From the NCBI GenBank assembly GCA_947628525.1, contig CANRAE010000002.1:1-46103 (forward strand): a stretch of 46,103 nucleotides of DNA, given 5' to 3'. Origin of the DNA: an uncultured Bacilli bacterium (lineage in GTDB: Bacteria; Bacillota_I; Bacilli_A; RF39; UBA660). Shown here in pieces: positions 16,538-46,004 of the stretch. How positions within the stretch are numbered: the stretch's first letter is position 1; each line of letters starts with the position of its first letter. The notes below the pieces were generated by a model. It did no database searches, had not been told where the DNA came from, and worked only from the letters and a program-made list of their open reading frames with translations. The translations under genes and the position numbers were made by a program.

Positions 16538-16593
16538 AGAGAAAGGTTCAATCTTTGAATTATTGATAAGATTGATGGTAGGTGATAATTAGA

Positions 16594-17952
16594 ATGATAA
16601 CAAAACCTAAGGGATGTCATGATATATATGGACAAGAAGCAAAGAAGTGGCAATATGTTAATAAAGTAATTGATGCCACGATGGAAAAATATAATTATAG
16701 TTATATTCGAACACCTATTTTTGAATCTAGTGAAGTGTTTCACCGAGGAATGGGTGCTACTAGCGATGTAGTTACTAAGGAAACTTATGATTTTAAAGAT
16801 CGTGGCGACCGTGATATGACTTTACGACCAGAAGGAACGGCAGGGGTAGTTAGAAGTTATATTGAAAATAAAATGTATGGCAATATGCCGCAACCAGTCA
16901 AATTATATTATAATGGCACCATGTATCGTTATGAACGTCCTCAATCAGGTCGCGATCGTGAATTAACACAATTTGGAGTTGAACTATTAGGAAGTGATGA
17001 TCCTATAACTGATGCGGAGGTCATTAGTATCCCTGTTAATATATATAAATTGTTGGGTTTAAAAGAAATCAAAGTTAATATTAATTCCCTTGGTGATGAT
17101 GAATCACGTAATAATTATCGTGAAGCTTTAATTGCCTATTTTAAACCACATATTCACGAGTTATGTGAAGATTGTCAAGAACGCTTTGTCAAAAATCCTT
17201 TACGTATTTTAGATTGTAAAGTGGATAAAGATAATCCTCTTTTGCAAAATGCTCCTAGTACTTTGGATTATTTAAATGAAGAAAGTAAATTGCGCTTTGA
17301 AAAGGTTAAAGAGTACTTATTAGCTTTGGAAGTTGATTATGTTGTTAATCCTAAGTTAGTTAGAGGACTTGACTATTATAATCATACTGTCTTTGAAATA
17401 GAGGCTCATGTTGAAGGTTTTGGATCTAATAATGTATTAGGTGCTGGGGGTCGATATAACGGCTTAGTAGAATTATTAGGAGGACCAAGTATCTCTGGTG
17501 TAGGTTTTGCATCAGGATTAGGGCGCCTTATTATGGCATTGGACTTAGAAAATATTAATCTTCCTATTAAAGATGAAGTAGAAATCTTTTGTATGGCAGT
17601 CTCTGATACCGAAAAAAATTATGCTGCTACATTAGTTCAAAGTCTTAGAATGAGCGGTTTCAAAGTCGACATGGAGTATAATAATAGAGGTTTAAAAGCC
17701 CAATTTAGACAAGCTGATAGATTAAATGCTAAATATTTAATAATTTTGAATGATCAAGATTTAGCTAATAATGAATTAAAAGTGAAAAACAACAAAACCA
17801 AAGAAGAAGTAACGCTTGGTTTAGACTATTTATTATATTATTTAGATGAAGCACTAATAGATGAAGATGATGATAGTGCCTTTACTGATAATTGCTACGC
17901 TGATGATTGTCAAGATGATCATGAATGTAGTTGCCATCATGATCAAGAATAA
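16594..17952 (+). CDS. hisS: Histidine--tRNA ligase with an unusual acidic Cys/His-rich C-terminal tail
   Basis: KGCHDIYG, LRPEGTAGVVR, YRYERPQSGRDRE..QFGVE and GGGRYNGL are class IIa HisRS motifs. Start placed at ATG 16594 (MITKPKG). Confidence 0.95.
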   Translation: MITKPKGCHDIYGQEAKKWQYVNKVIDATMEKYNYSYIRTPIFESSEVFHRGMGATSDVVTKETYDFKDRGDRDMTLRPEGTAGVVRSYIENKMYGNMPQPVKLYYNGTMYRYERPQSGRDRELTQFGVELLGSDDPITDAEVISIPVNIYKLLGLKEIKVNINSLGDDESRNNYREALIAYFKPHIHELCEDCQERFVKNPLRILDCKVDKDNPLLQNAPSTLDYLNEESKLRFEKVKEYLLALEVDYVVNPKLVRGLDYYNHTVFEIEAHVEGFGSNNVLGAGGRYNGLVELLGGPSISGVGFASGLGRLIMALDLENINLPIKDEVEIFCMAVSDTEKNYAATLVQSLRMSGFKVDMEYNNRGLKAQFRQADRLNAKYLIILNDQDLANNELKVKNNKTKEEVTLGLDYLLYYLDEALIDEDDDSAFTDNCYADDCQDDHECSCHHDQE

Positions 17953-17975
17953 TGTAAAATATTTTAAAAAAAATA

Positions 17976-18006
17976 AAAAAGGAGTTGTTTATCATCCTTT
18001 TTTTTG
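17976..18006 (+). terminator. Rho-independent terminator after hisS
   Basis: AAAAAGGA...TCCTTTTT stem followed by a T run. Confidence 0.6.
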
Positions 18007-18053: not shown

Positions 18054-18554
18054 ATGAATAACAATAAAATAAAAAAAATTGCCATTGTCATGTTAATTCT
18101 TGCTATCGGTATTATGAGTTCAGCATACGCTGTTTTATATCAAAGGCTTTCAATAAATGGTAAAGCTAGTGTAGTTGCATCATGGAAAGTTGAAATAGTT
18201 GGCATTAAAGAAGGAACGATTGTAGGAAATGCTTCTTCTTTATCGATACCTACTTATACCACAACTAGTGCTAGTTTTGATGCATCTTTAACTGATGAAA
18301 AAGACAGCATTCAGTATATTGTAACAATAAAAAATGCAGGTACAATTGATGCTAAATTAAATGATATAGCTAATAATTTTACACCTGATGATGCTATTAT
18401 ATATGAAGTAGATGGAGTAAATGAAAACGATGTTTTACTATCTGGCGATACAGTAGATGTTACGATAACCGTTAAAATAAAACCTGGTAGTGATATTACT
18501 GAAGGAGTAAATAGCGATGTAACATTAGTTTTTGATTATGTACAAAATGTATAA
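18054..18554 (+). CDS. Secreted TasA/camelysin-like protein with a SipW-type signal peptide (paralog P2)
   Basis: MNNNKIKKIAIVMLILAIGIMSSAYAVLYQRLSINGKASV compares with the B. subtilis TasA signal ...GGGTWA|AFND...FASGTLDL. KDSIQYIVTIKNAGTIDAKL compares with TasA LKPGDKLTKDFQFENNGSLAIK. It lies directly upstream of a SipW-type peptidase. The track start 17985 overlaps the hisS terminator, so ATG 18054 is preferred. Confidence 0.75.
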   Translation: MNNNKIKKIAIVMLILAIGIMSSAYAVLYQRLSINGKASVVASWKVEIVGIKEGTIVGNASSLSIPTYTTTSASFDASLTDEKDSIQYIVTIKNAGTIDAKLNDIANNFTPDDAIIYEVDGVNENDVLLSGDTVDVTITVKIKPGSDITEGVNSDVTLVFDYVQNV

Positions 18555-18586
18555 TTAGATAAAAAGAGTAATAGGGGATAGTCAAT

Positions 18587-19735
18587 ATGAGAGCAATTAA
18601 TAAAAAAATCGTTTTGATATATTTATTTCTCATTGTTTATGTAACTACAAGAGTTTTATCTGTTAAAATAAGCTCTTTAACTATTAGTAATGAGTTGAAC
18701 CTAGGAATTTGGGGTGCAGCCTTTCTCATTGCTTTTCTACTTACTAGACGAGACTATAATAGATATTTAGATCAATACGATAAAATTCAAACAACTTTCA
18801 TAGTAGTTGTTGGGTACTTGATGTTTTATTTCATTTTAGGTCTTTTTACAGGATATCAACACAACGCTTATTCATTAAGCTTAAGAGGTATTATTACCAA
18901 TACAATTCTGTTTATGCCTATAATTATATTTCAAGAATATATTAGACAAGTTTTAGTTAGTTATAGTAGTGGTAAAAACAAATGGATGGTACTAATCAGT
19001 GTATTGTACGTTATGATTAGTTTAAACTTTAATAGTTTATTTAATGATTTTCGAAATGCTGAGTCGGGATTTAAATATGCTTGTTCTGATTTAATCCCAT
19101 TAATAGCAAGAAATTTTGTCTTTACCTATTTAGCTTATATAAGCAGTTGTAAGCCAGTAATTCTTTATCGTATGTTAACGACAGCTGTTTCTATATATTT
19201 ACCTATAATTCCTAATATTAATTGGTTCTATACTGGATTATTTGGTATATTAGTTCCAATAATATTATATGTGCTTATCAATTATTCTCAATTGAAATTA
19301 GAGCGAAAGCTAACAAGGCAAGAAGAAAAAAAGAGCCGACCCATTTCTTATGTGCCAACCCTTATATTTATCTTTTTGATTGTTGGCTTTGTAGTAGGTT
19401 TTTTCCAATATCAACCAGTTGCAGTTGTCAGCGATAGTATGTTGCCTTTATTTGCAAGAGGTGATATGATTATCGTAGAGAAGCTAGATGAAGAAGGCAT
19501 CAATAACTTAAAAGTAGGCGACGTTATAAAGTTCCTAGCTGATGGTTATTATGTAATACATAGGATTTATGCTATTGAACAAACTGATGAAGGATTAATG
19601 TTTACCACAAAAGGAGACAACAACAATGCCCCTGATAGTAAAAAAGTTGCTGTTGATCAAATACAAGGTAAATATACATTCCATGTTAAATATGTTGGTT
19701 TTCCATCAGTTTGGTTAAGTGAAGCATTAAGATAA
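18587..19735 (+). CDS. Archaeal/ER-type signal peptidase I (SipW-like) fused to an N-terminal 8-TM domain of unknown family
   Basis: The C-terminal roughly 130 aa read VVSDSMLPLFARGDMIIVEK...VGDVIKF...YVIHRIYAI...FTTKGDNNNAPD...IQGKY. This matches the SipW/Sec11-type signature (Ser, His and Asp boxes). Residues 1-250 contain about 8 predicted TM helices, which canonical SipW (about 190 aa) lacks. Confidence 0.8.
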   Translation: MRAINKKIVLIYLFLIVYVTTRVLSVKISSLTISNELNLGIWGAAFLIAFLLTRRDYNRYLDQYDKIQTTFIVVVGYLMFYFILGLFTGYQHNAYSLSLRGIITNTILFMPIIIFQEYIRQVLVSYSSGKNKWMVLISVLYVMISLNFNSLFNDFRNAESGFKYACSDLIPLIARNFVFTYLAYISSCKPVILYRMLTTAVSIYLPIIPNINWFYTGLFGILVPIILYVLINYSQLKLERKLTRQEEKKSRPISYVPTLIFIFLIVGFVVGFFQYQPVAVVSDSMLPLFARGDMIIVEKLDEEGINNLKVGDVIKFLADGYYVIHRIYAIEQTDEGLMFTTKGDNNNAPDSKKVAVDQIQGKYTFHVKYVGFPSVWLSEALR

Positions 19736-19745
19736 GAGAGAAAAG

Positions 19746-21017
19746 GTGGTGTTGTTAGTGGATAATAAAGAAGATTGGTCATCATTAGATAAGGATGTTG
19801 GTGATGTACTTGAAAATATTCCGGTTGACAATATGGAATTTGATTCACTAGGGGAGTTGGATGAATCTAAGGATACTTTTTCAAACAAAGCTAGATCATT
19901 AAAAAAGGATGATGATAAAATGAATAACAAGAAAAAAGAAAATAATAACAATGGTTATAAGATTTCAAAGGACTTTTTCAAGATAATCGGATTAATAGTA
20001 TCAGGATTATTATTAGTTATATCTTTATGGATAATGACTAAATGTTTTACGCCAGCTCAGGAAATGACCAATTCTGTTTTAGCTTATAATACGACAAATC
20101 AAGCGGATTATAAAGTTCATTTATTAAAAAATGATTTTTATGAAACTGATACATTAGGTGTTGGCGAAATTGTCCCTGTAACATTTATTGATAAAATTGA
20201 AATTGATTTTTCAAGTTTCTTATCAGCTAATAAACAATTAAATATGGATTACAGTTATCATATTTCGGGCGTTATAACTGCTTCTAGTGATAATGGTGAT
20301 AACGAAGATGCTGGTGGTAAAATATGGACTAAAAATTATGAGTTCGTTGAACCAAAGAGCTTTTCTGAATCCAATGTTACGGGTTATGCAGTTCAAGAAA
20401 AAGTAATTATTGATTATCAACAATACAATGATTTAGTCAATCGTTATAAATTGCGTGCTGCTATTCCAATGGAAGCTGCTTTAACAGTAACTCTTACTGT
20501 TGATGCTAATAGTGTTGTTGAAAATGAGCCATTAACTGAAAGTACAGCGGTTAGTGTAACGATTCCATTATCGAAGTCAACTGTGCAAATCAAAACAAGT
20601 GGTGATGGTACTAATAGTAATTCGTTAGATGTAGTTGAAAAGATTGCTGCTAATAAAAATTTCGTTTTATTAGCCATTAGCGTTCTAGTATTTATAGCTT
20701 CATTAATAACTACGATTATGTTATTAAAGAGTTTAAGAAAAATGACTGTTGAACATTCTCTATTACTTAAATTTAATAAGATCATGCGTGATTATAATCA
20801 AATCATAATTGAGATAGAGGAATTACCAGAAGTTAGAAATGCAGCTGTCATTGAAGTTAAAACTTTCAAGGATATGCTAGATGTTCAAAAAGAATTACAT
20901 TTACCTATAATGTGTAAGAGAACTAAGACTGATGATGTTAAAGATAATTATTTCTATATAGTAAATCAAAATCAAATATTTAAATATCAAATGAATGATG
21001 AAAACGAAAAATTTTAA
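19746..21017 (+). CDS. Two-TM membrane protein, partner of the SipW cassette (possibly DUF5305-like)
   Basis: 423 aa. Layout: acidic N-terminal tail, TM1 (IIGLIVSGLLLVISLWIMT), a roughly 215-aa extracytoplasmic beta-rich segment, TM2 (FVLLAISVLVFIASLITTIMLL), and a roughly 95-aa cytoplasmic C-domain. It lies 10 nt after the peptidase gene. The start is ambiguous (GTG/TTG cluster at 19746-19758). The DUF5305 assignment is from memory and unverified. Confidence 0.6.
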   Translation: MVLLVDNKEDWSSLDKDVGDVLENIPVDNMEFDSLGELDESKDTFSNKARSLKKDDDKMNNKKKENNNNGYKISKDFFKIIGLIVSGLLLVISLWIMTKCFTPAQEMTNSVLAYNTTNQADYKVHLLKNDFYETDTLGVGEIVPVTFIDKIEIDFSSFLSANKQLNMDYSYHISGVITASSDNGDNEDAGGKIWTKNYEFVEPKSFSESNVTGYAVQEKVIIDYQQYNDLVNRYKLRAAIPMEAALTVTLTVDANSVVENEPLTESTAVSVTIPLSKSTVQIKTSGDGTNSNSLDVVEKIAANKNFVLLAISVLVFIASLITTIMLLKSLRKMTVEHSLLLKFNKIMRDYNQIIIEIEELPEVRNAAVIEVKTFKDMLDVQKELHLPIMCKRTKTDDVKDNYFYIVNQNQIFKYQMNDENEKF

Positions 21018-21046
21018 ATAAAAACTATTAAGATATTTGATTAATA

Positions 21047-21080
21047 AAGCACTTCTAAAAAAAAGAAGTGCTTTTAATAT
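21047..21080 (+). terminator. Rho-independent terminator of the SipW cassette
   Basis: AAGCACTTCT-A8-AGAAGTGCTT followed by TTTAATATTATTTTT. Confidence 0.75.
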
Positions 21081-21138: not shown

Positions 21139-21145
21139 ATAATTG

Positions 21146-21335
21146 TCTAGAAGATATGAGATTTATTCTATAAAACCGACTAAATAACGATAAGGGAGTT
21201 CGGAGCTCTATCCGGTGTTGAAGACCTTTATCAGGGATCCTAATGGATAGGTATGGACACCCACCTGCAAAAAGCGGGATTTTATCGTCTAAGGTCTCGA
21301 TCTTTTGGACATTTTTATGTTATAAAGAGGTTAAT
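21146..21335 (+). other. Long (about 190 nt) leader upstream of tcdA, possibly structured; class not recognised
   Basis: No credible ORF: the track extension from 21243 has no RBS. Long-range complementarities are AGACCTT (21221-21227) with AAGGTCT (21291-21297), CGATAA (21188-21193) with TTATCG (21281-21286), and GGTGT (21214-21218) with ACACC (21257-21261). There is a local hairpin CCTGC-AAAAA-GCGGG. GC content is locally higher than in the flanks. Confidence 0.3.
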
Positions 21336-22010
21336 ATGTTAGAAAGACTAGAATGGTTAATTGGTGATGAAAATATTGCCAAATTGAAAACGAAAACAGT
21401 TTTAATAGTAGGTTTAGGTGGAGTAGGTGGATATGTTGTAACCGCTCTTGCTCGCTCTGGTATTGAGCACTTTATAATTGTTGATCACGATATTGTAGAT
21501 ATTACTAATTTAAATAGACAAATTATTGCTACTAATTCTACTATTGGTAAATTAAAAGTAGATGTGACTAATGATCTATTACACGATATAAATAATAAAA
21601 TAATTATTGATAAAAAGCCTTTGTTTCTAACACTAGAAAATATCGATGAAGTTTTTTCGCAAAAAATAGATTTTGTTATAGATGCTTGTGATACTATCAA
21701 AACCAAAGAAGCTATTATTAACATGTGTCTTAATAAAAAAATTAAATTTATTTCGGCAATGGGAACAGGTAATAGGATGGATCCTTCCCAATTGGAGATA
21801 ACTGATATTACTAAAACTAATAATGATCCGCTTGCTAGAATTATTCGCAAATGGTACAAAGATAATAAAATAAAAGAAAAAGTGATAGTTGCTTGTTCTC
21901 GTGAAGTACCTAAAAAAAATGGTAATAAAATAGGTTCTAATAGTTTTGTGCCAGCTAGTTGTGGTCTATTAATTGCTAGCTATGTTATAAAAACATTCAT
22001 TAATGAATAA
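21336..22010 (+). CDS. tcdA: tRNA threonylcarbamoyladenosine dehydratase (ThiF/E1-like, TcdA family)
   Basis: LIVGLGGVGGYVVTALARSGI..FIIVDHDIVDITNLNRQI is the Rossmann/E1-like motif. The size (224 aa) and the absence of the MoeB/ThiF CxxC pairs fit TcdA. Start at ATG 21336 with RBS AAAGAGG. Confidence 0.8.
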   Translation: MLERLEWLIGDENIAKLKTKTVLIVGLGGVGGYVVTALARSGIEHFIIVDHDIVDITNLNRQIIATNSTIGKLKVDVTNDLLHDINNKIIIDKKPLFLTLENIDEVFSQKIDFVIDACDTIKTKEAIINMCLNKKIKFISAMGTGNRMDPSQLEITDITKTNNDPLARIIRKWYKDNKIKEKVIVACSREVPKKNGNKIGSNSFVPASCGLLIASYVIKTFINE

Positions 22011-33898: not shown

Positions 33899-36800
33899 AT
33901 GAAAAATACTTTAAAAAGAATTGTATGTACGGTTATTATTACTGGCTTTGCTTTGATTTTGTTAAAGCCTTTTGTTAATTATTCCATAGTAGCATATGCT
34001 ATTTCGCGTGAAGACAGTTATATTTATTTAACGGATCTATGGGATAGTAATAAATTATTAACCAAAGAAAGTAGTTGGAAAGATGCCAGGGCTCTTCGAA
34101 TCAATCAAAATGAACCAGGTGATCTCATTTCTCTTAATATCGAAGGACAACAAAAATATTTTTTGAATGGATTATTTGCTCATGCTCGAAGTACTTTGAT
34201 TTTTGATATAAGTGAATATACGCAAAAAGGTTTCGATACTTTCTCTTCTTATATAGGAGTAGATACTTATGCCAAAGCTAATGGGAATGGGGTACAGTTT
34301 ACTATTTCAGCATCAGTTGATAATAAACAATGGGTTGTATTAGAACAGCCAACGACTATTTTTAAAGGTAATACTGATGCCAAAGAAATTATCGTTCCTA
34401 TTGAAGGATATAATTATTTAAAACTATATGTTAGTGAAATTAACAATAATAATAGTAGTGATCATGCGGTATATGCTAATGCAATGCTATTTGATAAAGA
34501 TAAATATACACCAAGAACTGATACAAAAGTTAGTTGGATTAGTGATTTAAATACCTATGATGAAGAATTAAAAAAATATAGCGATCTTACCATTTTAAGC
34601 CATGATGATTTAGAAATGAAATTATTACAAAGAACACTTGTGAAACGAATGGGGTACCAAATTATTCAAGCTTATGCCACAAGTGATGATGCAAATAAAG
34701 TTGAGACATTACATTGGCTATTTACTGATAAAGAACGTTTAAAAACTTATATTACTGGTGGTGAGCCATTAGGTAACTATGTTAATTCTTTGAATGTTTT
34801 AACGAAATTGTATCAATCACACAAAGATGATTTAGTTAATGATAAATATACTCCTAAACAACGTGAAGTTTTTTTCAAAATGATGGTTGCTATTTCTCTA
34901 ACACATTCAGGAACGGTTGCATTATGGACTACTGGTGCTAACAATACTTTGGTAGTATCTGATCCAGTCAAACGTTATGAAGCTTTTAAAAATTTATATG
35001 TTGAAGAGAATTTACCGATAAAATATGAACAAACTTTTGCTGCGGATACTTTTGAGTCATTAACGGTTGAAGAAATGCGTTGGGTTGTTGATGCTCGTTT
35101 GAGTGATGAAGAAATTCCTTGGTTAAATTGGTATAGCAGTCATTTAGAAAATACTAAATATAGTGGTCGTAATGGTATGGATCCTTATACTTATATTTGG
35201 TATGATGATAGTTTTGATTGGCGTTACACTGATCCTAAATATTATGAAGCTAATTCGACGTATTGTTCGCCGGATATAAAAAATAAATTTGTAGCTGGAT
35301 ACGAACGTGGTGCAAGTTGTAATGATATATATAAACTTGATGTATGGGGTATAGTAAGCAATACTCCAACTAAGCCAAGATTATGGGCTATTTGGGAAGA
35401 AGATGGGGTATGTGGAGCTATCTCTAAGACTGGTGAAAATCTTAATAATGCTTATGGGAAAGTAGCAGCCGTAACAAGGCAACCAGCTCATGCAGCATAC
35501 TTGATTCAGACTAAAACTAAAAACGAAGATGGGACTTATATATCTACTTGGAGCATTGGTAATGATGTCCGTGGTTGGGCTTTATCTAGTGGTACCGAAA
35601 AAGGGGAAAGGCTTCCTTTGAATTGGGGAACGACAACTAATGATTATGCCTCAAATTATAATGGCAGTTATGTCATTTTAGCACAACGTGCACTAGATGA
35701 CTTCGCTTCTTATCAAAAAGCTTTAGAATATACTTTTATTGCTGATATGTATGAAGAAGATTTAATGAAGCAACGTGAAATATATCGCCAAATTGTTGGT
35801 ATAGCTCTTACCCAAGAAAGTACTACTGTTAAAAATGAAGGTGGTATACAATATTTTAATTTAGATGGATGGTATGGCTTAATTCAAACTTATTTAAAAG
35901 ATGATCATATGACATCATTAGATTATTACAAATTAAGTTATGAAATTATGGCTAACTTAGATGAGTTTCCATTAGCTATGAATGATATGTTAAATCTTAT
36001 TAATGCTAAACTTAATGATCATCATAAATTTGTAATTGATAGTGCTTATTACAAAATATTAACTGAATTATCCAAAGTACCAAATAATAGTGATAAATAT
36101 TTACAAGGACAAGCAGTTAGACAAGTTGCTCAATATTTACTTGGTAATAAAGAAGAAAATGTTAAATTCTCATTTAGTGGGGAGAATGCTAATAAAATAG
36201 TATTAGCTACCGCTCAGCCTTTTGAATATTCGCTAAATTATTCATATAATCCTGAAACAAAAGAAGTATTTGGTGATTGGATTCAAGTAACTGAGGGCAA
36301 TATGGCAGATTTAACCAATCAATTAAATCAAATTAATGCCACTAATGATATAGTTGTTCATATTCTTGGTGATGGCAATAGAGAACCTACTAGTAATAGC
36401 GTTATAACCATTAATATTGAAAAAGGAATAACGCCAAAGAATTTATATGCTAATGATTTAGAAAATCAAGTAATAGGTACTACTTCCAATATGGAATGGC
36501 AAATAATTAGTGAAGATAATAAGAGTGTTAGTAATAATAAATGGATAAAGTTTCAAGAAAAATTACCTGATTTATCAAAAATGGCAACCGTTTTAGTTCG
36601 TGATGGGGCTCACGATACTTATTTACCAAGTGATTATGTGGCATTATCATTTGAAGAGGCTGATGAAGTTGATTTAACTAAGGTTTATGTTCCTATTTCT
36701 CGTCTTAAAGTTACTGCTTCTTCAAGGCAAAATAATAATGAACATGAACTAAAAGCTATTGATGGTAACGCTAATACTTATTGGCATAATTTATGGAGTG

Positions 36801-38641
36801 GTGCTGATCAGGATAAATGGATTCAATTAGAAATTACTGATGAAGATCCTATATCACTTTCCAAAATTGAATATATGCCAAGGCAAGATTCAGGAACCAA
36901 TGGTATTTTTACCAAAGTTAAATTAGAAGTTAGTTTAACTGGTGAAAAAGATAGTTGGACGACCGTAGATGACAATATTATTTGGGCTAAGGATAAATCA
37001 ACTAAGACTTATATTTTAGATACACCAACGTTAGCTAAATATGTAAGATTAACAGCGATTGAATCGGCTGGTAATTTTGCATCAGCAGCAATGATTAATT
37101 TATTTGAAAATACAACTACTAGAATCTCTGTTAATGATTTAGCAGTAAGTTATGTAAAAAGTGGCTTTATTTATGATGGAATGGCTAAGGAACCAGAGGT
37201 TACTGTTAGATACAATAATCAATTATTAATTTTAAATGAGGATTATAAAATAGAATATTTGCATAATATTAATGCTGGTATGGCCCAAATATCGCTTAAA
37301 GGTATGGGCAAATATACTGGTAAAAAAGAGTTTGAATTTAAAATAGATAAAGCTTTACAACCATTAGAAGTACCAGCCAAAGAAATGTTTGTAGATTCTA
37401 GTGTTACGCATTTGATATATGTTCCTTTACCAGAAGACTGGTGGTGGGAAGATTATGAATTTCCATTGCAACCTGGAAAAACAGTTAATGTTAAAGCGAT
37501 ATATTATGGTGATGATCGCAATAATTATGAAATAACAGAAACCATGGTTGCTATAACTCAAAGTAAGGGTAATAGTCCCCAAGTACAAATTGCTGATAAG
37601 GCTAAACTTTCCTTTGATATTGCAACCGAAGATGCTATTAATTATGATTATTTTAAAAATTTACTTATAATTTCTGATCTTGAAGATGACCAAAAGCAAA
37701 AAGAATTAACCGTTACTTTAAATCAAGAATTAACTAATTGGGATGGTTTCACTTGGAATCATATAGGAACATTTTGTGTAGGATACACAATTACTGATAG
37801 TGATGAAAATAAGGTTGATTATACAATTGTATTTACTTTGTTTAATTCAAAAATACCTTCTGTTGAAATTAATGAAGAAAATTTTGCGGTTGATATAAAA
37901 GAAGCAATTTATAATGGTAGTGCACTTACACCTAAAATTACAATTCGTGATGCATATCATCATATTTTGACTGAGGATATTGATTATGAAATTGTAAGCT
38001 ATAAAAACAATATAAATGCTGGATTTGCTAGTGTAACGATTAAAGGTATAGGTCTTTATTCTAAGGAGATGACCATTAATTTTAAAATAGCAAAAGCTAG
38101 TGTTCCTAGTGAAAAAATTAATGATACAATGACTGTATCTTATGAGACCTCAACATTAAATGATATATCTTTACCTGTTGGTTGGGTTTGGGATAATACT
38201 TCTACTAAACTTCAAGAAGGAGAAAATAAAGTTAAAATTATTTTTGTGGGTGATCAAAATCACGAAAGATATGAAATGGAAATAGTAGTAGTAAGAGAAC
38301 AAATGAAGAACACTAAACAAAGTAAATATCAGCCAGATCTTACTAATCCTAGTAATGAGCTAGATCCAAAAGAAAGTTCTAATTCTAATGATATGCCAAA
38401 TAATAACGATGAATTAGATGAACAAGAAATAGATTTAACCAAGGATGATGAGGTTTTAGATGATAATCAAGAACAATCTAGATTAGATGATTCTAGCCAA
38501 CTAGATAGCAATACAGTAGTAAAAAAAGATAGTAGTTCGCATCAAGTTTATTATTTATATATTATTTTCTTTGTAGCTGTTATTTTATTGATTATATTGA
38601 TATTAAAATTAAAAAGTATAAAAAGTAAAAATAATATTTAA
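33899..38641 (+). CDS. Large cell-surface protein: signal peptide, NPCBM-like module, unknown core, F5/8 type C (discoidin) domain, Ig-like repeats, C-terminal TM anchor
   Basis: NPCBM-like: IYLTDLW...NGLFAHARSTLIFDI...FSSYIGVD...GVQFTI...DHAVYANAML. Discoidin: VTASSRQ...AIDGNANTYWHN...WIQLEI...IEYMPRQD. Two repeats of YDGMAKEPEVTV...NINAGMAQISLKGMGKYTG..EFEFKI type. The C-terminus has an acidic low-complexity linker, then VYYLYIIFFVAVILLIILIL plus KLKSIKSK. No LPXTG. Confidence 0.85.
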   Translation: MKNTLKRIVCTVIITGFALILLKPFVNYSIVAYAISREDSYIYLTDLWDSNKLLTKESSWKDARALRINQNEPGDLISLNIEGQQKYFLNGLFAHARSTLIFDISEYTQKGFDTFSSYIGVDTYAKANGNGVQFTISASVDNKQWVVLEQPTTIFKGNTDAKEIIVPIEGYNYLKLYVSEINNNNSSDHAVYANAMLFDKDKYTPRTDTKVSWISDLNTYDEELKKYSDLTILSHDDLEMKLLQRTLVKRMGYQIIQAYATSDDANKVETLHWLFTDKERLKTYITGGEPLGNYVNSLNVLTKLYQSHKDDLVNDKYTPKQREVFFKMMVAISLTHSGTVALWTTGANNTLVVSDPVKRYEAFKNLYVEENLPIKYEQTFAADTFESLTVEEMRWVVDARLSDEEIPWLNWYSSHLENTKYSGRNGMDPYTYIWYDDSFDWRYTDPKYYEANSTYCSPDIKNKFVAGYERGASCNDIYKLDVWGIVSNTPTKPRLWAIWEEDGVCGAISKTGENLNNAYGKVAAVTRQPAHAAYLIQTKTKNEDGTYISTWSIGNDVRGWALSSGTEKGERLPLNWGTTTNDYASNYNGSYVILAQRALDDFASYQKALEYTFIADMYEEDLMKQREIYRQIVGIALTQESTTVKNEGGIQYFNLDGWYGLIQTYLKDDHMTSLDYYKLSYEIMANLDEFPLAMNDMLNLINAKLNDHHKFVIDSAYYKILTELSKVPNNSDKYLQGQAVRQVAQYLLGNKEENVKFSFSGENANKIVLATAQPFEYSLNYSYNPETKEVFGDWIQVTEGNMADLTNQLNQINATNDIVVHILGDGNREPTSNSVITINIEKGITPKNLYANDLENQVIGTTSNMEWQIISEDNKSVSNNKWIKFQEKLPDLSKMATVLVRDGAHDTYLPSDYVALSFEEADEVDLTKVYVPISRLKVTASSRQNNNEHELKAIDGNANTYWHNLWSGADQDKWIQLEITDEDPISLSKIEYMPRQDSGTNGIFTKVKLEVSLTGEKDSWTTVDDNIIWAKDKSTKTYILDTPTLAKYVRLTAIESAGNFASAAMINLFENTTTRISVNDLAVSYVKSGFIYDGMAKEPEVTVRYNNQLLILNEDYKIEYLHNINAGMAQISLKGMGKYTGKKEFEFKIDKALQPLEVPAKEMFVDSSVTHLIYVPLPEDWWWEDYEFPLQPGKTVNVKAIYYGDDRNNYEITETMVAITQSKGNSPQVQIADKAKLSFDIATEDAINYDYFKNLLIISDLEDDQKQKELTVTLNQELTNWDGFTWNHIGTFCVGYTITDSDENKVDYTIVFTLFNSKIPSVEINEENFAVDIKEAIYNGSALTPKITIRDAYHHILTEDIDYEIVSYKNNINAGFASVTIKGIGLYSKEMTINFKIAKASVPSEKINDTMTVSYETSTLNDISLPVGWVWDNTSTKLQEGENKVKIIFVGDQNHERYEMEIVVVREQMKNTKQSKYQPDLTNPSNELDPKESSNSNDMPNNNDELDEQEIDLTKDDEVLDDNQEQSRLDDSSQLDSNTVVKKDSSSHQVYYLYIIFFVAVILLIILILKLKSIKSKNNI

Positions 38642-38768: not shown

Positions 38769-39713
38769 ATGAAATTAAAAAAGAATAAAAAAGAAATAGA
38801 AGTATTAGAATTAGATGATGACTCTAATATTTCCAAAAAAGACAATAAGAAAAAAGAGTCAAAGAAAAATAAAAAACAATTAAAAAAAGAAAAGAAAGTT
38901 GCTAAAAAGCAAAAACGCCAAGATAAAAAGGCTTTAAAAAAAGCTCAAAAAGGTAAAAAAAATACGGGCTCAATTATTGTTATTATTATTTCCATTATTT
39001 TTATTATCTTAGGAATTTTATTATCATTAATTGGTGGCGGAGTAATTACGATTGATTTTGAGCGTAAGCCTAAGTTATATCCACTTAATGAAAAGGTACA
39101 TATAGGTGATTATGTGGAATATAATGCAGGGGTATGGGATAAGAGTGTTAATGTTCCTAATCGGCAAGTAGCTTATACTTTTGGTGGTTATACTGAAAAC
39201 GCATCAAGAAATAATAGTGTTAATTGTGGTTATAATGATGTTACTATGTCTGGTTGGCGTGTTTTTAAAATAGAAGATAATAGTGTTATTTTAATTCAAG
39301 ATGGCTTATCAATGTGTTACTATCATGGTTATGGAGCTGGAAATACTGATCGTAGTTTAAAAATATTAAGTGGTCAAGATGAGAATTTTAATTTTGATTA
39401 TTATTTGGATAATCAATTTGCCGAGAGTGTTAAAATTTTATCCAAGGAGGATATTGATTCATATTATGGCAGTGATACTAGTTATAAAAAAATTACCGAT
39501 GATTTAATTAAAGTAGGTAATCCATATTGGTTAGCTAGTAAAAATAATACTTATAATATGTGGTATGTTACAGAAGGTGGAACAGTTGCCTCTAATCAAG
39601 TTGGTGTATACGGTGTTCGTATGTTAATTAAACTAAAAAACACAGTCAAAACCATAGGACAAAATGATGATCAAGTATGGATCTTAACAAATGATATGAC
39701 AAGTAAAGATTAA
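38769..39713 (+). CDS. Membrane-anchored protein with a Lys-rich cytoplasmic tail and an extracellular domain (DUF6273-like C-terminus)
   Basis: Residues 1-65 are extremely K-rich, followed by one TM (SIIVIIISIIFIILGILLSLIGGG). The C-terminal PYWLASKN...VGVYGVRMLIKL resembles the YWL.S...GVRP motif of a common Firmicute surface domain; this is from memory. Confidence 0.6.
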   Translation: MKLKKNKKEIEVLELDDDSNISKKDNKKKESKKNKKQLKKEKKVAKKQKRQDKKALKKAQKGKKNTGSIIVIIISIIFIILGILLSLIGGGVITIDFERKPKLYPLNEKVHIGDYVEYNAGVWDKSVNVPNRQVAYTFGGYTENASRNNSVNCGYNDVTMSGWRVFKIEDNSVILIQDGLSMCYYHGYGAGNTDRSLKILSGQDENFNFDYYLDNQFAESVKILSKEDIDSYYGSDTSYKKITDDLIKVGNPYWLASKNNTYNMWYVTEGGTVASNQVGVYGVRMLIKLKNTVKTIGQNDDQVWILTNDMTSKD

Positions 39714-40973: not shown

Positions 40974-43289
40974 ATGTATACTGAATATGAAGAAAAAAAA
41001 GGATTTCCAATAAGAGATTTCCTAATTAAACTAGTATTAATTGTAATATTTGTTTTACTTTTAATGTGGTTATTACCAATACCAAATATGAAAGGTATAA
41101 ACAATACTATATTTAATGCTAATGTTCAAACTATGAAAGATGCGGCTATTAATTATTTTACGACTGAAAGATTACCGCAAAAAGTAGGGGAAAAGAAGAC
41201 TTTAACTTTGGAAGAAATGTTAGAGCTTAAACTTTTATTACCTTTTACTGATAAGAATGGTGAGACATGTGATGTAGATGAGTCTTATGTTACGATTGAA
41301 AAATTGGAGACAGAGTATTTACTTACTGTTCATTTGAAATGTAAAGATGAAGAAGATGAAATTGTCGTTTATTTAGGATGCTATTCATATTGTACAACCG
41401 ATGTTTGTGAAAAGAAAGAAGAGAAAAAAGACGATGATAAAAATCCAGGTAACAATGGTGGCGGTGATGTTGCTGTTGTTGGTGGACCTTCTTGTAGTTT
41501 AACTATTGCCTCAGGTAAAGCTGGTGAAAACGGCTGGTATGTAGGTGATGTCGTAGTTAAGTTTAAGAGTAAGACGGCTACTAATAATGCTAAAATTACT
41601 AATTATGGTATAGGATTATCTAATAACTATGATGGCAAAGATTCTTATACTGTTAATAAAGACGGGGTTACAACTGTTTATGGATTTGTTAAAGATTCTA
41701 ATGGTAAAACAGCAGTTTGTAGTATTGATGTAAAAAGAGATACAGTAGCTCCATCATGTGGCTTAACCGTTTTAAGCGGAAGTGTTGGATCTGATGGATC
41801 ATATATAAATGATGTTGTTGTTGGTTTCTCATCTAGAACTGATGCTACTAGTGGTGTTAAACAATTTGGAATGGGTACAACAGCTAAGCCAAATTACAAC
41901 AGTAACGATCGTTATACTGTTAATACTAATGGTTCGACAACTGTTTATGGTTACGTTAAAGATGCTGCTGGACATACTAAAACTTGTGATTTAACTGTTA
42001 AACGAAATGCTTCTAAAAATGATTCTGTACCATCTTGTAACCTTGAAATTAAAAGTGGTAATTTAGGAACTAATAATTGGTATGTTTCTAATGTAACTGT
42101 TGGATTTAAATCTAAAACAACAACTAATGGTGCTACTATTACTTCATTTGGAATTGGAACAGCACCAGTATATAACAATTCATCAACCTATGAATTGAAA
42201 AATGATGGAATATATGTTGTTAAAGGATATGTAAAAGATTCTAATGGTCATACAGCTACTTGTAGTATTACCGTAAAAAGAGATGCTACTAAACCTAATT
42301 GTAATTTAGTTGTATTAAGTGGTACTAAGAATAATTCTGGTAACTATACAAGTAATGTTGTAGTAGGATTTAGAAATAGAACTGATGCTACTAGTGGTGT
42401 TGGAGCTTATGGTATATCTGCTGGTAATAATCCAACATATAATAGTAGTGATAGAATAACTATAACTAATAATGGAACACATACAATTCGTGGATATGTA
42501 AAAGATAATGCTGGTAATACTAATACTTGTGATATAACTATTACTAAAGTTGCCTTAACATATGAGTACGAATATATGAAACATATAGATGCTACTTATA
42601 GTAATTGGGGAAATTGGACAACGAAAGAGTATGATCCAAGTAATGCTCCTAAATGGGGAATATCAAGTGATGGTTTATCTGAGACAAAAGATCTAGGTAA
42701 ATCAACAACCTATAAATATAGAAATGGATCTCCAATATATGTTAATAGATTAATGGAATCTGATAGTGTAGCTGTTAAAACATGTGCTGGATATAATTAT
42801 TATCGTAGTCAAACAACAACGACTAAAACTTATGCTATAAAAGTTGCTGATGGTTGGGTATTTCAACAATATGTTCAAATTCCTAGCTCAACAGTTCCAA
42901 CTGATACTTTAATGTATAAATATGAATTAGTTAATATTGAGTCTGACGAATGTAATGGTGGATGTACTACAACCCCAGGATATACTTTATGGAAAAAATA
43001 TTCACGTAACGTTTCAACGGTAACAGCCGAAGATACAATTGTTTCATCAAATGGTGTAACAGTTAAATGTAGTAATTATGAACAAAAACCTATAAAAGTA
43101 TTTAATACTTTGGAAATAATTGCTGGATATGAAAAAATTCGTGTTGAAGATACTGTTTATAAATATCAAATTAGATATCGTACTTTATTAAATGCTGCTT
43201 ATAATGATATTAAATGGAGTACTTATAATGATTTAACATTAATTTCACAAGGATATAAAATGACGGGTAATTATAGATTGGTTGGTTAG
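40974..43289 (+). CDS. N-terminally anchored surface protein with a pilin-like head and four Cys-bracketed Ig-like repeats
   Basis: 771 aa. ATG lies 2 nt after the smr stop, with RBS GGGGG. N-terminus MYTEYEEKKGFPIRDFLIKLVLIVIFVLLLMWLLPIPN. Four roughly 87-93-aa repeats span aa 172-525. The C-terminal roughly 245 aa are unassigned. Confidence 0.75.
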   Translation: MYTEYEEKKGFPIRDFLIKLVLIVIFVLLLMWLLPIPNMKGINNTIFNANVQTMKDAAINYFTTERLPQKVGEKKTLTLEEMLELKLLLPFTDKNGETCDVDESYVTIEKLETEYLLTVHLKCKDEEDEIVVYLGCYSYCTTDVCEKKEEKKDDDKNPGNNGGGDVAVVGGPSCSLTIASGKAGENGWYVGDVVVKFKSKTATNNAKITNYGIGLSNNYDGKDSYTVNKDGVTTVYGFVKDSNGKTAVCSIDVKRDTVAPSCGLTVLSGSVGSDGSYINDVVVGFSSRTDATSGVKQFGMGTTAKPNYNSNDRYTVNTNGSTTVYGYVKDAAGHTKTCDLTVKRNASKNDSVPSCNLEIKSGNLGTNNWYVSNVTVGFKSKTTTNGATITSFGIGTAPVYNNSSTYELKNDGIYVVKGYVKDSNGHTATCSITVKRDATKPNCNLVVLSGTKNNSGNYTSNVVVGFRNRTDATSGVGAYGISAGNNPTYNSSDRITITNNGTHTIRGYVKDNAGNTNTCDITITKVALTYEYEYMKHIDATYSNWGNWTTKEYDPSNAPKWGISSDGLSETKDLGKSTTYKYRNGSPIYVNRLMESDSVAVKTCAGYNYYRSQTTTTKTYAIKVADGWVFQQYVQIPSSTVPTDTLMYKYELVNIESDECNGGCTTTPGYTLWKKYSRNVSTVTAEDTIVSSNGVTVKCSNYEQKPIKVFNTLEIIAGYEKIRVEDTVYKYQIRYRTLLNAAYNDIKWSTYNDLTLISQGYKMTGNYRLVG
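41487..42548 (+). repeat. Four diverged tandem coding repeats (about 260-280 bp each) in an A-B-A-B pattern
   Basis: A units: SCSLTIASGKAGENGWYVGDVVVKFKSKTATNNAKITNYGIG and SCNLEIKSGNLGTNNWYVSNVTVGFKSKTTTNGATITSFGIG. B units: SCGLTVLSGSVGSDGSYINDVVVGFSSRTDATSGVKQFGMG and NCNLVVLSGTKNNSGNYTSNVVVGFRNRTDATSGVGAYGIS. Each unit ends in G.VKD..G.T..C.I.VKR. Confidence 0.8.
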
Positions 43290-43301
43290 AAGGAGATATG
43301 T

Positions 43302-46004
43302 ATGAAAGAAAATATTAAAATATTAGTAACTTACAATTATGATGAACTTAAAGGTGAACCTTATTTTGATACCTTTTATTTAGTGGATATCGATAGAAAT
43401 AGTATATTGGTTTCTGAACCATATGATGCTAATAAACATGAAAAGTTTATAACTGATATATTAAAGAAATATGGATATTCATCACTAGAAGAGGCTATTA
43501 AAGATGGTGCTTATTCAATAGTAGCACCAGATTCAGAAGAGTTAAAAAAATATTCATATCCAATTGAACCTGAGCCACCAAAAATTAAAGAAAAATTAAT
43601 TATTACTACTACTAAAAATGCTGATGGTAAAATAATTTTTGATAAAATTTATAAAGTGGATACCATAAATAATAAAGTTATAAGTGAAGAAAAGTTTGAT
43701 GTTAAAAAGCATCGTTCCTTAGTAAATGATTATTTAGTTGAACATGGTGTTGCTAATATCGATGAGGCTAGAAAAGAAGGGATATTATTAATATGTACTA
43801 ATAAGAATCCTGAACTTGAAAAATATGGTATAGATGTTACTCCTGATCCGGTTGAAGTTACTGAACCATTATATTTAACTGGTGACGTAAAAGATTATCG
43901 TAAACAAAAAAGAATAGCTGCTTTGGGTGGAGCTGGCGTTGGTGTACTTGGTATATTAGCGGGTGTTGCTGCTCAAAAGGAAGTAACACCAACCGATACG
44001 AATAATGAAATAGATGATATTTGGGATGCTGATATTCAAAAGTTGATTGACAGTTTAAATGAAGAGGGTAAAGCTTTCTTTAATGATGTATATGGCACTT
44101 TAAAAGATATGAATGATAAAGCATCAAAAGATAATAATTTTAAATTAAATGCTGATGGTGATACACAATTACAATTTACTGCCGAAGAATTAATAGCAGC
44201 TAAAATTACCTTAAATAATTATTCTGGTGAACAGTTATTAAAAATCTTTGGTACTACTAGTAAAATAGGTAATTTATCATTAGATACTGCTAGTATAGAA
44301 AAAGAAATGAATAACTTGTATTTAAAACTTTCAACTTATTATATGAATGCAGTTGAACCTATTGGTATAACTACTTTAATTGATAGTGATAGTGATCATG
44401 CTTTTTTTGAAAAACATGAGCAAGTTATTCTTGATTTTAATGCTAATCCATCAATCGAAGCTTCTGATAAGGTTATAAAAGCTTTATACGATAGTTATAC
44501 ATATGGTGGAAAAAATGGTGAATATAACTCACATAATGGTTATGTATCTTGGTTAGCTACATCAATGCATTATGCTAATGTTCTAAGAACACGTAATGTT
44601 CCAGAATATAATGAAGTTCATAATGTAAGTGATAGTGAAAGACAAGAACATAAAGAAGGATATATTGAAGTTGGTACAAAAAGAGCAACTTTAATTGAAA
44701 ATAATGAAACATTAGATGACGCAATGATGGACACAACACTATTAAAGGAACTTAACGATAAGAGTTTGTGTGCATCAGCTAGAAATAGTTTTGAATCTAC
44801 ATTTAGAGATTATGAATTAAAAAGAAGTGCAACATCAGCTATATATAATACAGATACAGAACGATATGAAAAAGAATTAGCAAATTTAGAAAACTTAAAT
44901 GTATTAGAAAATAATTTGGCTGAACTTTTAAATCGTGAAGTAGGTGTACTAGAACATAGCGATATTATTCAATTGATTAATCATAGATTTTTACCTAATC
45001 AACAATTAGATAAAAATGATGAGGTTATCGTTGGTAAAGATGAAGAGGGTAATACAGTTGTTGATAAAGAACAATTTGATAAATTACCAAGCGAAGAACA
45101 AGATAAAGTAATTAAAGAACATGGCACTGTTACTGGTACCAATACTTCAACAACAGAACAACAAGTAAATAAAGAAGATTTAACAGCCAGTGAAAAAGAA
45201 GAAGCCAATAGACAAGAAGCTATTTTAGAAGAGACAGATGATATGTTTGCTGCATTGCAATTACAAGCTATTCTTGATGCTAACGATTATGTTGAAGAAA
45301 AAGGAGCTTACCATTACAATAAAACCATTATCAATTCTTATGATGGTCAAGTTATTGATACAAGTAATAAATCTTTATTCAATATAGTTGCATATGCTGG
45401 GGCTTTTGGTGATGGTGCACCTGAGATTAATGGCAATGATAATCAAGTTCAAGAGCGTTTAAATAAAGAGGCTAATGAAGCAAAACAAGCATTAGAATCT
45501 TTATCAAATGAAGGTAAAGCTTATTTGAAAGATAAGTATGGAAGTAATTGGCAAAATGTTGTATTACAAAATAATTACAAAGATACTTTTGTTGCTGAAT
45601 TAAACCAAGAGTTGGACAACGCTAGAACCGAAGGGGCTAGAATTGTAAAAGAAGCAGCAAAGCAAGCTTATGATGCTATTCAAAGTGAATGGACAGAAGA
45701 AGATAATAAAGAAGAAAATAAGCAAGACGAAAATCAGCCAGGTACAGGTGAAGGTAATAAAGGTGAAGACAACCAAGATGATGACTATGATCCAAATTTA
45801 GATCCTGATTATCAGGTTCCTGGTGAGTTACCATTTGACCCACTTGATCCATTTGTAGATGGTTACTCAAACGTTGAGCCAGGTATTGGTAAAAATGGTG
45901 AGCCAGATATTGGTGAAAATGTTTCTTGGGAAGATATGTTACAACAAGTTAACAATGATGCTCTTGGAAATGATGCTCCTGTACCTGTATATAGTAAAAG
46001 ATAG
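43302..46004 (+). CDS. Large hypothetical membrane protein with a duplicated N-terminal cytoplasmic module, one TM and a roughly 680-aa extracytoplasmic region
   Basis: RBS AAGGAG. Two roughly 95-aa repeats (ILVTYNYDELKGEPYFDTFYLVDIDRNSILVSEPYDANKHEKFITDILKKYGYSSLEEAIKDGAYSIV and LIITTTKNADGKIIFDKIYKVDTINNKVISEEKFDVKKHRSLVNDYLVEHGVANIDEARKEGILLI). TM IAALGGAGVGVLGILAGVAA. Acidic C-terminal tail. Confidence 0.65.
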   Translation: MKENIKILVTYNYDELKGEPYFDTFYLVDIDRNSILVSEPYDANKHEKFITDILKKYGYSSLEEAIKDGAYSIVAPDSEELKKYSYPIEPEPPKIKEKLIITTTKNADGKIIFDKIYKVDTINNKVISEEKFDVKKHRSLVNDYLVEHGVANIDEARKEGILLICTNKNPELEKYGIDVTPDPVEVTEPLYLTGDVKDYRKQKRIAALGGAGVGVLGILAGVAAQKEVTPTDTNNEIDDIWDADIQKLIDSLNEEGKAFFNDVYGTLKDMNDKASKDNNFKLNADGDTQLQFTAEELIAAKITLNNYSGEQLLKIFGTTSKIGNLSLDTASIEKEMNNLYLKLSTYYMNAVEPIGITTLIDSDSDHAFFEKHEQVILDFNANPSIEASDKVIKALYDSYTYGGKNGEYNSHNGYVSWLATSMHYANVLRTRNVPEYNEVHNVSDSERQEHKEGYIEVGTKRATLIENNETLDDAMMDTTLLKELNDKSLCASARNSFESTFRDYELKRSATSAIYNTDTERYEKELANLENLNVLENNLAELLNREVGVLEHSDIIQLINHRFLPNQQLDKNDEVIVGKDEEGNTVVDKEQFDKLPSEEQDKVIKEHGTVTGTNTSTTEQQVNKEDLTASEKEEANRQEAILEETDDMFAALQLQAILDANDYVEEKGAYHYNKTIINSYDGQVIDTSNKSLFNIVAYAGAFGDGAPEINGNDNQVQERLNKEANEAKQALESLSNEGKAYLKDKYGSNWQNVVLQNNYKDTFVAELNQELDNARTEGARIVKEAAKQAYDAIQSEWTEEDNKEENKQDENQPGTGEGNKGEDNQDDDYDPNLDPDYQVPGELPFDPLDPFVDGYSNVEPGIGKNGEPDIGENVSWEDMLQQVNNDALGNDAPVPVYSKR

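Follow-up and report, generated by a model that had tools for sequence, protein, structure and literature searches.

The window analysed here, a stretch of 46,103 nucleotides from an uncultured Bacilli bacterium (contig CANRAE010000002.1, assembly GCA_947628525.1), carries a cassette of three co-oriented genes, labelled g1, g2 and g3 in 5′ to 3′ order (Table 1). Their open reading frame coordinates reproduce those of an earlier reading of the same letters (hereafter the original prediction), with gaps of 32 nt between g1 and g2 and 10 nt between g2 and g3, and all three are confirmed as real genes by the homologues they have (55–61% identity for g1, up to 79% for g2) and by the synteny of the triad in relatives. 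The architecture of the cassette, which has no TapA, a type I signal peptidase (SPase) with multiple transmembrane (TM) helices and a DUF5305 protein, is one already described, mostly bioinformatically, for abpX loci, of which the cassette is a divergent member. The abpX loci of archaea and Bacillota contain genes for minor subunits of the AbpX-like kind, for an SPase I with ten TMs and for a DUF5305 protein termed 'SPase accessory' (January 2026 preprint, bioRxiv 10.64898/2026.01.04.697558). AbpX of Pyrodictium abyssi belongs to the TasA superfamily and polymerises by donor-strand complementation, as shown by cryo-electron microscopy (cryoEM; bioRxiv 10.64898/2026.01.04.697558). The original prediction of a fibre or matrix module, analogous to known ones and different in architecture, is supported by this homology of the parts to abpX-locus components.

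Table 1. Positions of the cassette genes, their parts and related features within the window (aa, amino acids; ↓, predicted cleavage site).
Feature	Position	Strand	Description
g1	18054-18554	+	166 aa from ATG, ribosome-binding site GGGGAAA
g1 signal peptide	18054-18131	+	residues 1-26; read from sequence
Predicted N-terminal donor strand of mature g1	18132-18173	+	VLYQRLSINGKASV; period-2 conservation, register with AbpX
g2	18587-19735	+	382 aa
g2 N-terminal polytopic domain	18587-19306	+	residues 1-240, eight TM helices (AlphaFold2 model)
g2 signal-peptidase module	19331-19735	+	residues 249-382; anchor helix 252-270, catalytic Ser284/His325/Asp344/Asp350
g3	19746-21017	+	423 aa; GTG 19758 is an equally plausible start
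g3 layout	19746-21017	+	~79-aa cytoplasmic tail, TM, ~207-aa ectodomain, TM, ~99-aa cytoplasmic domain
Intrinsic terminator closing the cassette	21046-21074	+	11-bp stem, -13.6 kcal/mol
Distant g1 paralogue, 537 aa	5850-7463	+	g1-family hidden Markov model (HMM) E 2e-50 over residues 3-167
g1-like paralogue, 179 aa	28540-29079	+	…AVAYA↓AFNTQLKVSGT…; HMM E 6e-31; BLASTP to g1 1e-7
g1-like paralogue, 173 aa	29101-29622	+	…MGIAYA↓AFATTLNINGT…; HMM E 1e-29; BLASTP to g1 1e-12

The resemblance to abpX loci extends over all three genes. In both, the subunit is small and acidic and combines a Sec signal, the ..YA↓ motif, an amphipathic N-terminal strand, an NxG(T/S) motif and ..QNV at the C-terminus; next to it is encoded an SPase of ~380 residues whose N-terminal domain is polytopic, and both have a two-TM DUF5305 partner and extra subunit paralogues. 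Unlike abpX loci, the cassette has no LPXTG or SLH anchor, kinase or cyclic di-GMP (c-di-GMP) genes beside it, and its host, unlike P. abyssi, belongs to an AT-rich uncultured gut lineage of Bacilli.

In a scan of one genome per species, relatives of g2 are found in at least 534 species-level genomes, overwhelmingly metagenome-assembled genomes that derive from human and animal guts and represent uncultured Bacilli, Clostridia and 'Tenericutes'. Among the 80 best g2 loci, taken from genomes of related species, a DUF5305 gene (the g3 homologue) lies directly downstream of the peptidase gene in 78 and a g1-family gene directly upstream of it in 68, in keeping with the expected co-conservation of the triad; in six of the ten loci that lack a strong g1 match, the sequence ahead of g2 is shorter than 1 kb. 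A locus has between 1 and 7 g1-like genes, long g1-like proteins occur in eight loci, and the order g1(x1-7)-g2-g3 is kept in most of the 80 genomes. A 73%-identical relative (L001) retains alaS, hisS, the triad, the ThiF-like gene and lexA. The AbpX-type system of subunit, multi-TM SPase and DUF5305 protein extends beyond thermophiles and a small number of cultured Clostridia.

Several relatives from human and animal guts (L004-L006, L009, L011 and L086) carry four to seven tandem g1-like genes before the peptidase gene, frequently with a further one behind the DUF5305 gene; a GH25/choline-binding lysin-like gene follows the cluster in L004.

The peptidase and its DUF5305 partner

The archaeal/endoplasmic reticulum (ER)-type signal peptidase model TIGR02228 matches residues 249–380 of g2 at 101 bits, against a cutoff of 51.85, and the Pfam Peptidase_S26 model also matches this C-terminal module. 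The Bacillus SipW equivalog NF046067 remains below its cutoff (72.4 versus 190 bits); judged by these profiles, g2 is SipW-like and not a SipW orthologue. S284 (in SDSM), H325 (in HRI) and both D344 and D350 (in GDNNNxPD) are invariant in 34 g2 homologues, down to 34% identity. An AlphaFold model of g2 built on the alignment of these homologues (predicted local distance difference test, pLDDT, 81.9) shows eight TM helices, a Lys/Arg-rich cytoplasmic loop, an anchor helix and a beta-rich catalytic domain. Foldseek places human SEC11A/C first among the structural matches of this model (7p2p/7p2q; E 6e-5 to 8e-5, TM-score ~0.6), followed by the pilus-associated SipA. The original prediction had described g2 as an archaeal/ER-type signal peptidase with SDSM, IHRI and GDNNN.PD motifs, fused to an 8-TM domain, and both halves of that description agree with the profile match and with the eight TM helices that precede the anchor helix in the model.

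The fusion is conserved. Judged from its relatives it is not an annotation accident, since nearly all of the listed proteins, among the 376 in the database that match g2, run full length (380–390 aa). In P. abyssi the SPase gene adjoining abpX encodes 380 aa, and g2 resembles this enzyme both in BLASTP (2e-16, residues 43–372) and in hhalign (98.4%, E 5e-15, 320 columns including the polytopic domain). These alignments indicate that the homology of g2 to the multi-TM SPase of abpX loci covers nearly all of the protein. The two differ in topology, the abpX SPase being reported with ten TMs and the g2 model having nine (8+1) with no C-terminal TM. SipW differs from g2 in having only two TMs, in addition to the missed equivalog cutoff. 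The peptidase of C. perfringens sipW-bsaA is not known to have an 8-TM fusion.

TasA is reported to be a poor LepB substrate because of its aromatic P2′ residue, and this accounts for the need for a dedicated SPase (PMC10269814).

The third gene scores 64.9 bits with the DUF5305 model (PF17231), whose cutoff is 29, which answers the profile comparison proposed for it, and hydrophobic segments at residues 80–98 and 306–324 give it the expected two-TM layout of tail, TM, ectodomain, TM and cytoplasmic domain. In the DUF5305 proteins of abpX loci, which have two TMs, a beta-sandwich lies outside the cell and an alpha/beta domain in the cytoplasm (bioRxiv 10.64898/2026.01.04.697558). The original prediction had considered the two-TM protein as a possible anchor or assembly platform; the literature favours a different role, DUF5305 being currently seen as a peptidase accessory subunit (bioRxiv 10.64898/2026.01.04.697558; PMC11821415; PMC12337348), and by analogy g3 is presumed to be one. 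The idea that its ectodomain is a g1-like, built-in acceptor or anchor for the donor strand is unsupported (hhalign 4.7%). A jackhmmer match to g3 at positions 38769-39713 of the window was likewise discarded as a DUF5305 copy, as it covers only a Lys-rich stretch and a TM.

The association of peptidase and partner has parallels. The haloarchaeal Tafi system (tafA-G) and the DUF1102 clusters of Thermococcales and Archaeoglobales resemble the cassette in combining an SPase, a DUF5305 protein and donor-strand pilins (PMC11821415, PMC12337348). In Tafi, deletion of the SPase TafD blocks pilin processing, and the locus also encodes the DUF5305 protein TafG (PMC11821415). Tafi differs from the cassette in that its pilins use the twin-arginine (Tat) route, TafD has 4 TMs with a different extra domain, and the pilin families are not the same. 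The eukaryotic signal peptidase complex (SEC11A/C with SPC12/22/25; 7P2P/7P2Q), whose catalytic domain is the best structural match of g2, offers a second parallel, in which accessory membrane subunits surround a Sec11-type protease; this idea is transferable to g2 and g3, although neither the 8-TM domain nor DUF5305 has demonstrated homology to SPC subunits.

The subunit family and its predicted donor strand

Mature g1 is predicted to be a small acidic protein of 140 aa (isoelectric point, pI, 4.10; 14.3% Asp+Glu), much like AbpX (pI 4.05; 14.7%). Its signal peptide has a K-rich n-region, a 13-residue h-region and a c-region, SSAYA, that ends in an AxA site, so that cleavage is predicted between A26 and V27; the motif aligns with TYA↓QW of AbpX and TWA↓AF of TasA. 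Within the g1 family few parts are as well conserved as this c-region. Directly after this type I signal peptide follows an amphipathic donor-strand pattern, in which L28, L32, I34, G36, A38 and V40 are kept and the residues between them vary, the alternation continuing at W44, V46 and I48. Such period-2 conservation is, to judge from the alignment, that of a beta strand buried on one face.

Kinship with AbpX is seen at the level of families. The AbpX sequence was taken from the preprint supplement and joined by close relatives into a 5-sequence family, which hhalign aligns with a 50-sequence profile of the g1 family at 93.2% (E 2.9e-7, 162 columns); the aligned part extends from the signal peptide, across ..YA↓ and the donor strand, as far as the C-terminal ..QNV that both families have. 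This alignment sets the g1 donor strand in register with W2, L6, L8, A10 and I12 of AbpX. With the single AbpX sequence the value is 64%. Some of the 50 g1 relatives touch established models of the superfamily: six match Pfam Peptidase_M73 (PF12389), one of them above threshold (P0215, 30.8 bits versus 22.5), two match the BsaA model TIGR04090 (best E 1.2e-3) and one matches the TasA model. As a control, a phmmer search of the collected proteins with TasA gave weak matches, those listed being all g1-family proteins and none a g2 homologue. These comparisons support the assignment of g1 to the TasA superfamily, only remotely and by way of the family profile to AbpX.

The donor strand itself is not that of AbpX. 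AbpX homologues have as a hallmark an aromatic residue at mature position 2 and an acidic one at position 4, the latter a calcium site; in AbpX these are the 'Trp clamp' W2 and the calcium ligand E4, the calcium being bound at the interface of strand and groove (bioRxiv 10.64898/2026.01.04.697558). The g1 family has L or F at position 2 and, for the most part, Q, T or S at position 4, where an acidic residue is rare. Judged by these residues, the g1 lineage departs from the hallmark given for AbpX homologues, and with L2/Q4 in place of W2/E4 the strand calcium bridge may be absent in g1.

The g1 family is large. A word-based search with g1 finds only nine relatives; an exhaustive profile search finds 3,557 representative clusters at E <= 1e-3 and 1,163 at E <= 1e-10. 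The N-terminus common to them consists of basic residues, a hydrophobic stretch, (S/G)(A/G)-Y-A and then x-(L/F)-x-x-x-L-x-I-x-G-T. Many members have ~165–175 aa and many others 300–2,500 aa with the module at the N-terminus. In the long proteins among the 150 best representatives, the g1-like module is N-terminal only and the C-terminal domains behind it vary, DUF6273 and ALK/LTK GRD being examples.

Many of the long proteins (P0140, P0164 and P0188, for example) end in DUF6273 with a '…VRPVINL…G.GT…PY.I' C-terminal motif, and P0135 (2,507 aa) has 14 matched stretches of the g1-like sandwich.

The window itself encodes three more g1-like proteins (Table 1). The tandem pair lies ~7.5 kb downstream of the cassette, is 24–38% identical to g1 and has an AYA↓AF…L.I.GT N-terminus. 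The 537-aa protein joins a g1-type signal and donor-strand N-terminus and a g1-like domain to a Listeria-Bacteroides repeat and an ALK/LTK-type glycine-rich domain (Pfam CARDB, Flg_new and ALK_LTK_GRD; PF12810, E 6.6e-45), a combination unusual for a bacterial surface protein. The three are likely to be further substrates of g2, and they are candidate minor or decorating subunits.

Proposed fibre assembly, competing explanations and the extra membrane domain

We consider it probable that the cassette produces fibres of donor-strand-linked subunits. In this mechanism g1, with its Sec-type signal peptide, would be exported by Sec, the three g1-like proteins of the window probably taking the same route. 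The dedicated Sec11/SipW-type peptidase g2, carried on its 8-TM domain and assisted by the DUF5305 protein g3 as an accessory subunit, would cut after (S/G)(A/G)-Y-A. Cleavage would free the amphipathic N-terminal strand (VLYQRLSINGKASV), which would enter the open groove in the beta-sandwich of the next subunit, and polymerisation by donor-strand complementation would build thin acidic fibres on or around the cell, presumably attached to it. Paralogues with C-terminal passenger domains would join as minor or decorating subunits.

A number of observations weigh against this mechanism. The sequence of g1 lies beyond the reach of BLAST from AbpX (pairwise BLASTP E 0.79), and g1 has no Pfam or NCBIfam match at E <= 1 (no Peptidase_M73, TasA, camelysin, SipW-cognate TIGR04088 or BsaA). 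Searches of Protein Data Bank (PDB) sequences with g1-family profiles return nothing meaningful, and hhalign of the family with a single TasA sequence reaches 17%, with the PGD…NxG motif as the only part aligned. When the g1 monomer is compared with the PDB by Foldseek, the matches are generic immunoglobulin (Ig)-like sandwiches and adaptin-ear folds (best E 3e-3) and an archaeal type IV pilin, with no TasA in the top 50; no AbpX chain is among the matches either, the AbpX entries 9SJ2 and 9RHP (bioRxiv 10.64898/2026.01.04.697558) possibly lying outside the searched PDB set. Mature positions 2 and 4 of g1 are L and Q and do not show the aromatic/acidic hallmark. In the AlphaFold2 (AF2) model of the g1 monomer, a seven-strand beta-sandwich (pLDDT 79.6), the presumed donor strand appears as a helix continuous with the signal peptide (residues 3–41). 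The g1-like module heads many proteins of 300–2,500 aa, which would fit a general role in surface display as well, and the cassette holds no LPXTG or SLH anchor. Finally, the bacterial members of the system are known from their genes.

The long N-terminal helix, followed by an Ig-like sandwich, would also suit a type IV pilin-like filament in which the hydrophobic helix stays on the protein and becomes part of a helical core, the peptidase being unrelated or loosely coupled, and the sixth-ranked Foldseek match of g1 is indeed the Sulfolobus AAP pilin (8q30; probability 0.99, E 7.6e-3). The signal peptide speaks otherwise. Its hydrophobic stretch comes straight after KK, with no preceding G/A site and no conserved Glu at +5 as expected of a class III signal, and the AxA site stands at the end of the hydrophobic stretch and not before it, with conservation of beta-strand period beyond. 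No prepilin peptidase or ATPase genes are present in the cassette or in the 80 related loci, nor is there an assembly ATPase or platform gene at the locus, where a type I signal peptidase is tightly linked. On grounds of signal peptide and gene context a type IV pilin identity of g1 is rejected, and we regard such a filament as highly improbable. The helix in the model is taken as uninformative, because a donor strand would fold only when bound in the groove of another subunit; likewise the N-terminal extension is unstructured in the AlphaFold3 (AF3) monomer of AbpX (bioRxiv 10.64898/2026.01.04.697558).

A second alternative dispenses with the fibre. The cassette would be a SipW-dependent secretion or surface-display system in which the N-terminal module is a tag for export or cell association found on many kinds of surface protein. 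In that case g2 and g3 would do no more than process or release these cargoes, and g1 would be a small protein of the surface or matrix that remains a monomer. The many long proteins among the 150 best family representatives, with their N-terminal module and diverse C-terminal domains, are what such a system would show, as are the lack of anchor or chaperone genes in the cassette and the generic CARDB/DUF11-like Ig sandwich of the g1 fold. It fits less well that the strand after the cleavage site has period-2 conservation as strong as that of the domain core, that short subunits occur in tandem arrays of up to seven copies, typical of major and minor pilins, and that g1 and g2 are homologous to AbpX, whose polymerisation is structurally solved, and to its adjacent SPase. 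We judge surface display without a fibre to be quite unlikely.

Donor-strand fibres remain the preferred explanation, with g1 as a remote member of the superfamily. The claim that g1 is TasA-like holds by way of the AbpX family and the six M73-matching relatives and fails for direct matches to Peptidase_M73 and TIGR04088. A TasA-like PGD...KN.G motif had also been attributed to g1; the second half is present (KNAGTIDAK), the first is not, since g1 reads EKD where PGD is the family consensus.

Among the systems of Bacillota, B. subtilis tapA-sipW-tasA and B. cereus calY (camelysin) likewise place a dedicated Sec11-type peptidase beside a fibre subunit of the same superfamily, with an aromatic-Ala↓ cleavage motif followed by a hydrophobic P2′ residue and with donor-strand assembly, here proposed for g1. 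TasA is ~100 residues larger than g1 and has helical insertions, and whereas the cassette has no TapA, B. subtilis has no DUF5305 partner. C. perfringens sipW-bsaA is similar as a source of SipW-dependent matrix polymers in a Bacillota anaerobe; the TIGR04090 match of the two g1 relatives that touch this family is weak. Intermolecular isopeptide bonds are reported for a C. perfringens matrix protein (PMC11580942). It is noteworthy that the present system combines a very wide spread in small-genome gut lineages, a non-canonical donor strand, dispersed paralogues with passenger domains and a possible CPBP-like domain.

The last of these concerns the 8-TM part of g2. Within it E117 is invariant and Q116, Y118 and R120 are nearly so (QEYIR); the Glu/Arg pair lies on the fourth TM helix and aligns with REMVR of the P. 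abyssi enzyme. Peptidase matches aside, the CAAX protease Rce1 (4cad) is the only membrane protein that the AF2 model matches with high probability (Foldseek probability 0.99, Rce1-normalised TM-score 0.53–0.54, ~256 columns, E 0.12–0.47). The preprint notes the extra SPase helices without fold or function and does not mention an Rce1/CPBP fold (bioRxiv 10.64898/2026.01.04.697558). As a lead from the model, the domain could be a CPBP-like module of reduced catalytic capacity, serving to hold the signal peptide or as a scaffold for the complex. More tentatively, it might be a CPBP/Rce1-type intramembrane protease or substrate gate with a second task, for instance to clear away or position the signal peptide or to trim the subunit further; g2 and DUF5305 together would then be a prokaryotic equivalent, complete in itself, of the eukaryotic signal peptidase complex. 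This idea, which adds to the fibre mechanism and does not compete with it, draws on the Rce1 match, on the likeness of the QEYIR/REMVR pair to CPBP motif 1 (EExxxR) and on the silence of the preprint about the fold and function of the extra helices. It has to contend with a Foldseek E of only 0.12 at best from an AF2 model of pLDDT ~82, with the Pfam CPBP model (PF02517), which matches none of 14 g2 N-domains even at E <= 10, and with the lack of any sequence match in a PDB profile search with the domain. No histidine is conserved in the domain and, QEYIR apart, the CPBP motifs 2 and 3 (FxxxH and HxxxN/D) are missing. Motif searches for CPBP genes in related loci, meant for a comparison profile, gave no convincing candidate.

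A fuller scheme is a little more doubtful again. The CPBP/Rce1-type module, with its Glu/Arg pair kept from Pyrodictium to gut Bacilli, would carry out a second intramembrane cleavage or grip the signal peptide for an exact cut at the start of the donor strand, and with DUF5305 it would constitute a fibre-dedicated prokaryotic 'signal peptidase complex', feeding calcium-independent L2/Q4 fibres with diverse passengers in the gut lineage.

TasA-superfamily fibres are a main protein scaffold of Gram-positive and archaeal biofilms. Given at least 534 genomes with the peptidase, more than 3,500 subunit clusters, mostly from uncultured Bacilli and Clostridia of the gut with small genomes, and up to seven tandem subunits, the system is a candidate for a major structure of the surface or matrix in gut commensals about which little is understood. 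As a compact three-gene module, the cassette is suited to probing the role of the DUF5305 partner and that of the extra membrane domain of the peptidase.

Cassette borders and neighbouring genes

The strong terminator foreseen downstream of the cassette is found (Table 1), with a z-score of -4.5 and none of 200 shuffled sequences folding as well. The upstream border is less clear. The original prediction had bounded the cassette by a hisS terminator, but the hairpin after hisS (~17975-18003) is A/U-rich and weak (-6.9 kcal/mol, z = -1.0, 29 of 200 shuffles folding as well) and is not called by a terminator scan, so that transcription may read through from hisS into the cassette. The GC content of the cassette (29–31%) equals that of its flanks, and the 73%-identical relative keeps the neighbouring genes; horizontal acquisition is unsupported.

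The hisS gene (16582-17952) ends in an unusual Asp/Cys/His-rich tail (…DDCQDDHECSCHHDQE). In the window g1 comes directly next, unlike in the 73%-identical relative, where aspS stands between hisS and the cassette (L001 2110-5378).

Farther downstream, 33899-38641 (+) encodes a surface protein of 1,580 aa that combines NPCBM/NEW2 with F5/8 type C (discoidin) domains and has a hydrophobic anchor at its C-terminus; it is probably either an adhesin that binds glycans or a glycosidase. The adjacent genes at 40974-43289 and 43302-46004 (+) encode proteins of 771 and 900 aa with only a weak HYR match, none significant; the first has an N-terminal TM segment.

Directly after the cassette terminator lies a 6S RNA (ssrS, RF00013) at 21141-21315 (+), which matches over the full model length at 64.2 bits against a gathering score of 46.4. 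It is overlapped by the 5′ part of the open reading frame 21243-22010, a ThiF-family gene. Because of this overlap, the gene probably starts at an internal Met (MLERLEWL…), as its 225-aa homologue in L001 also suggests.

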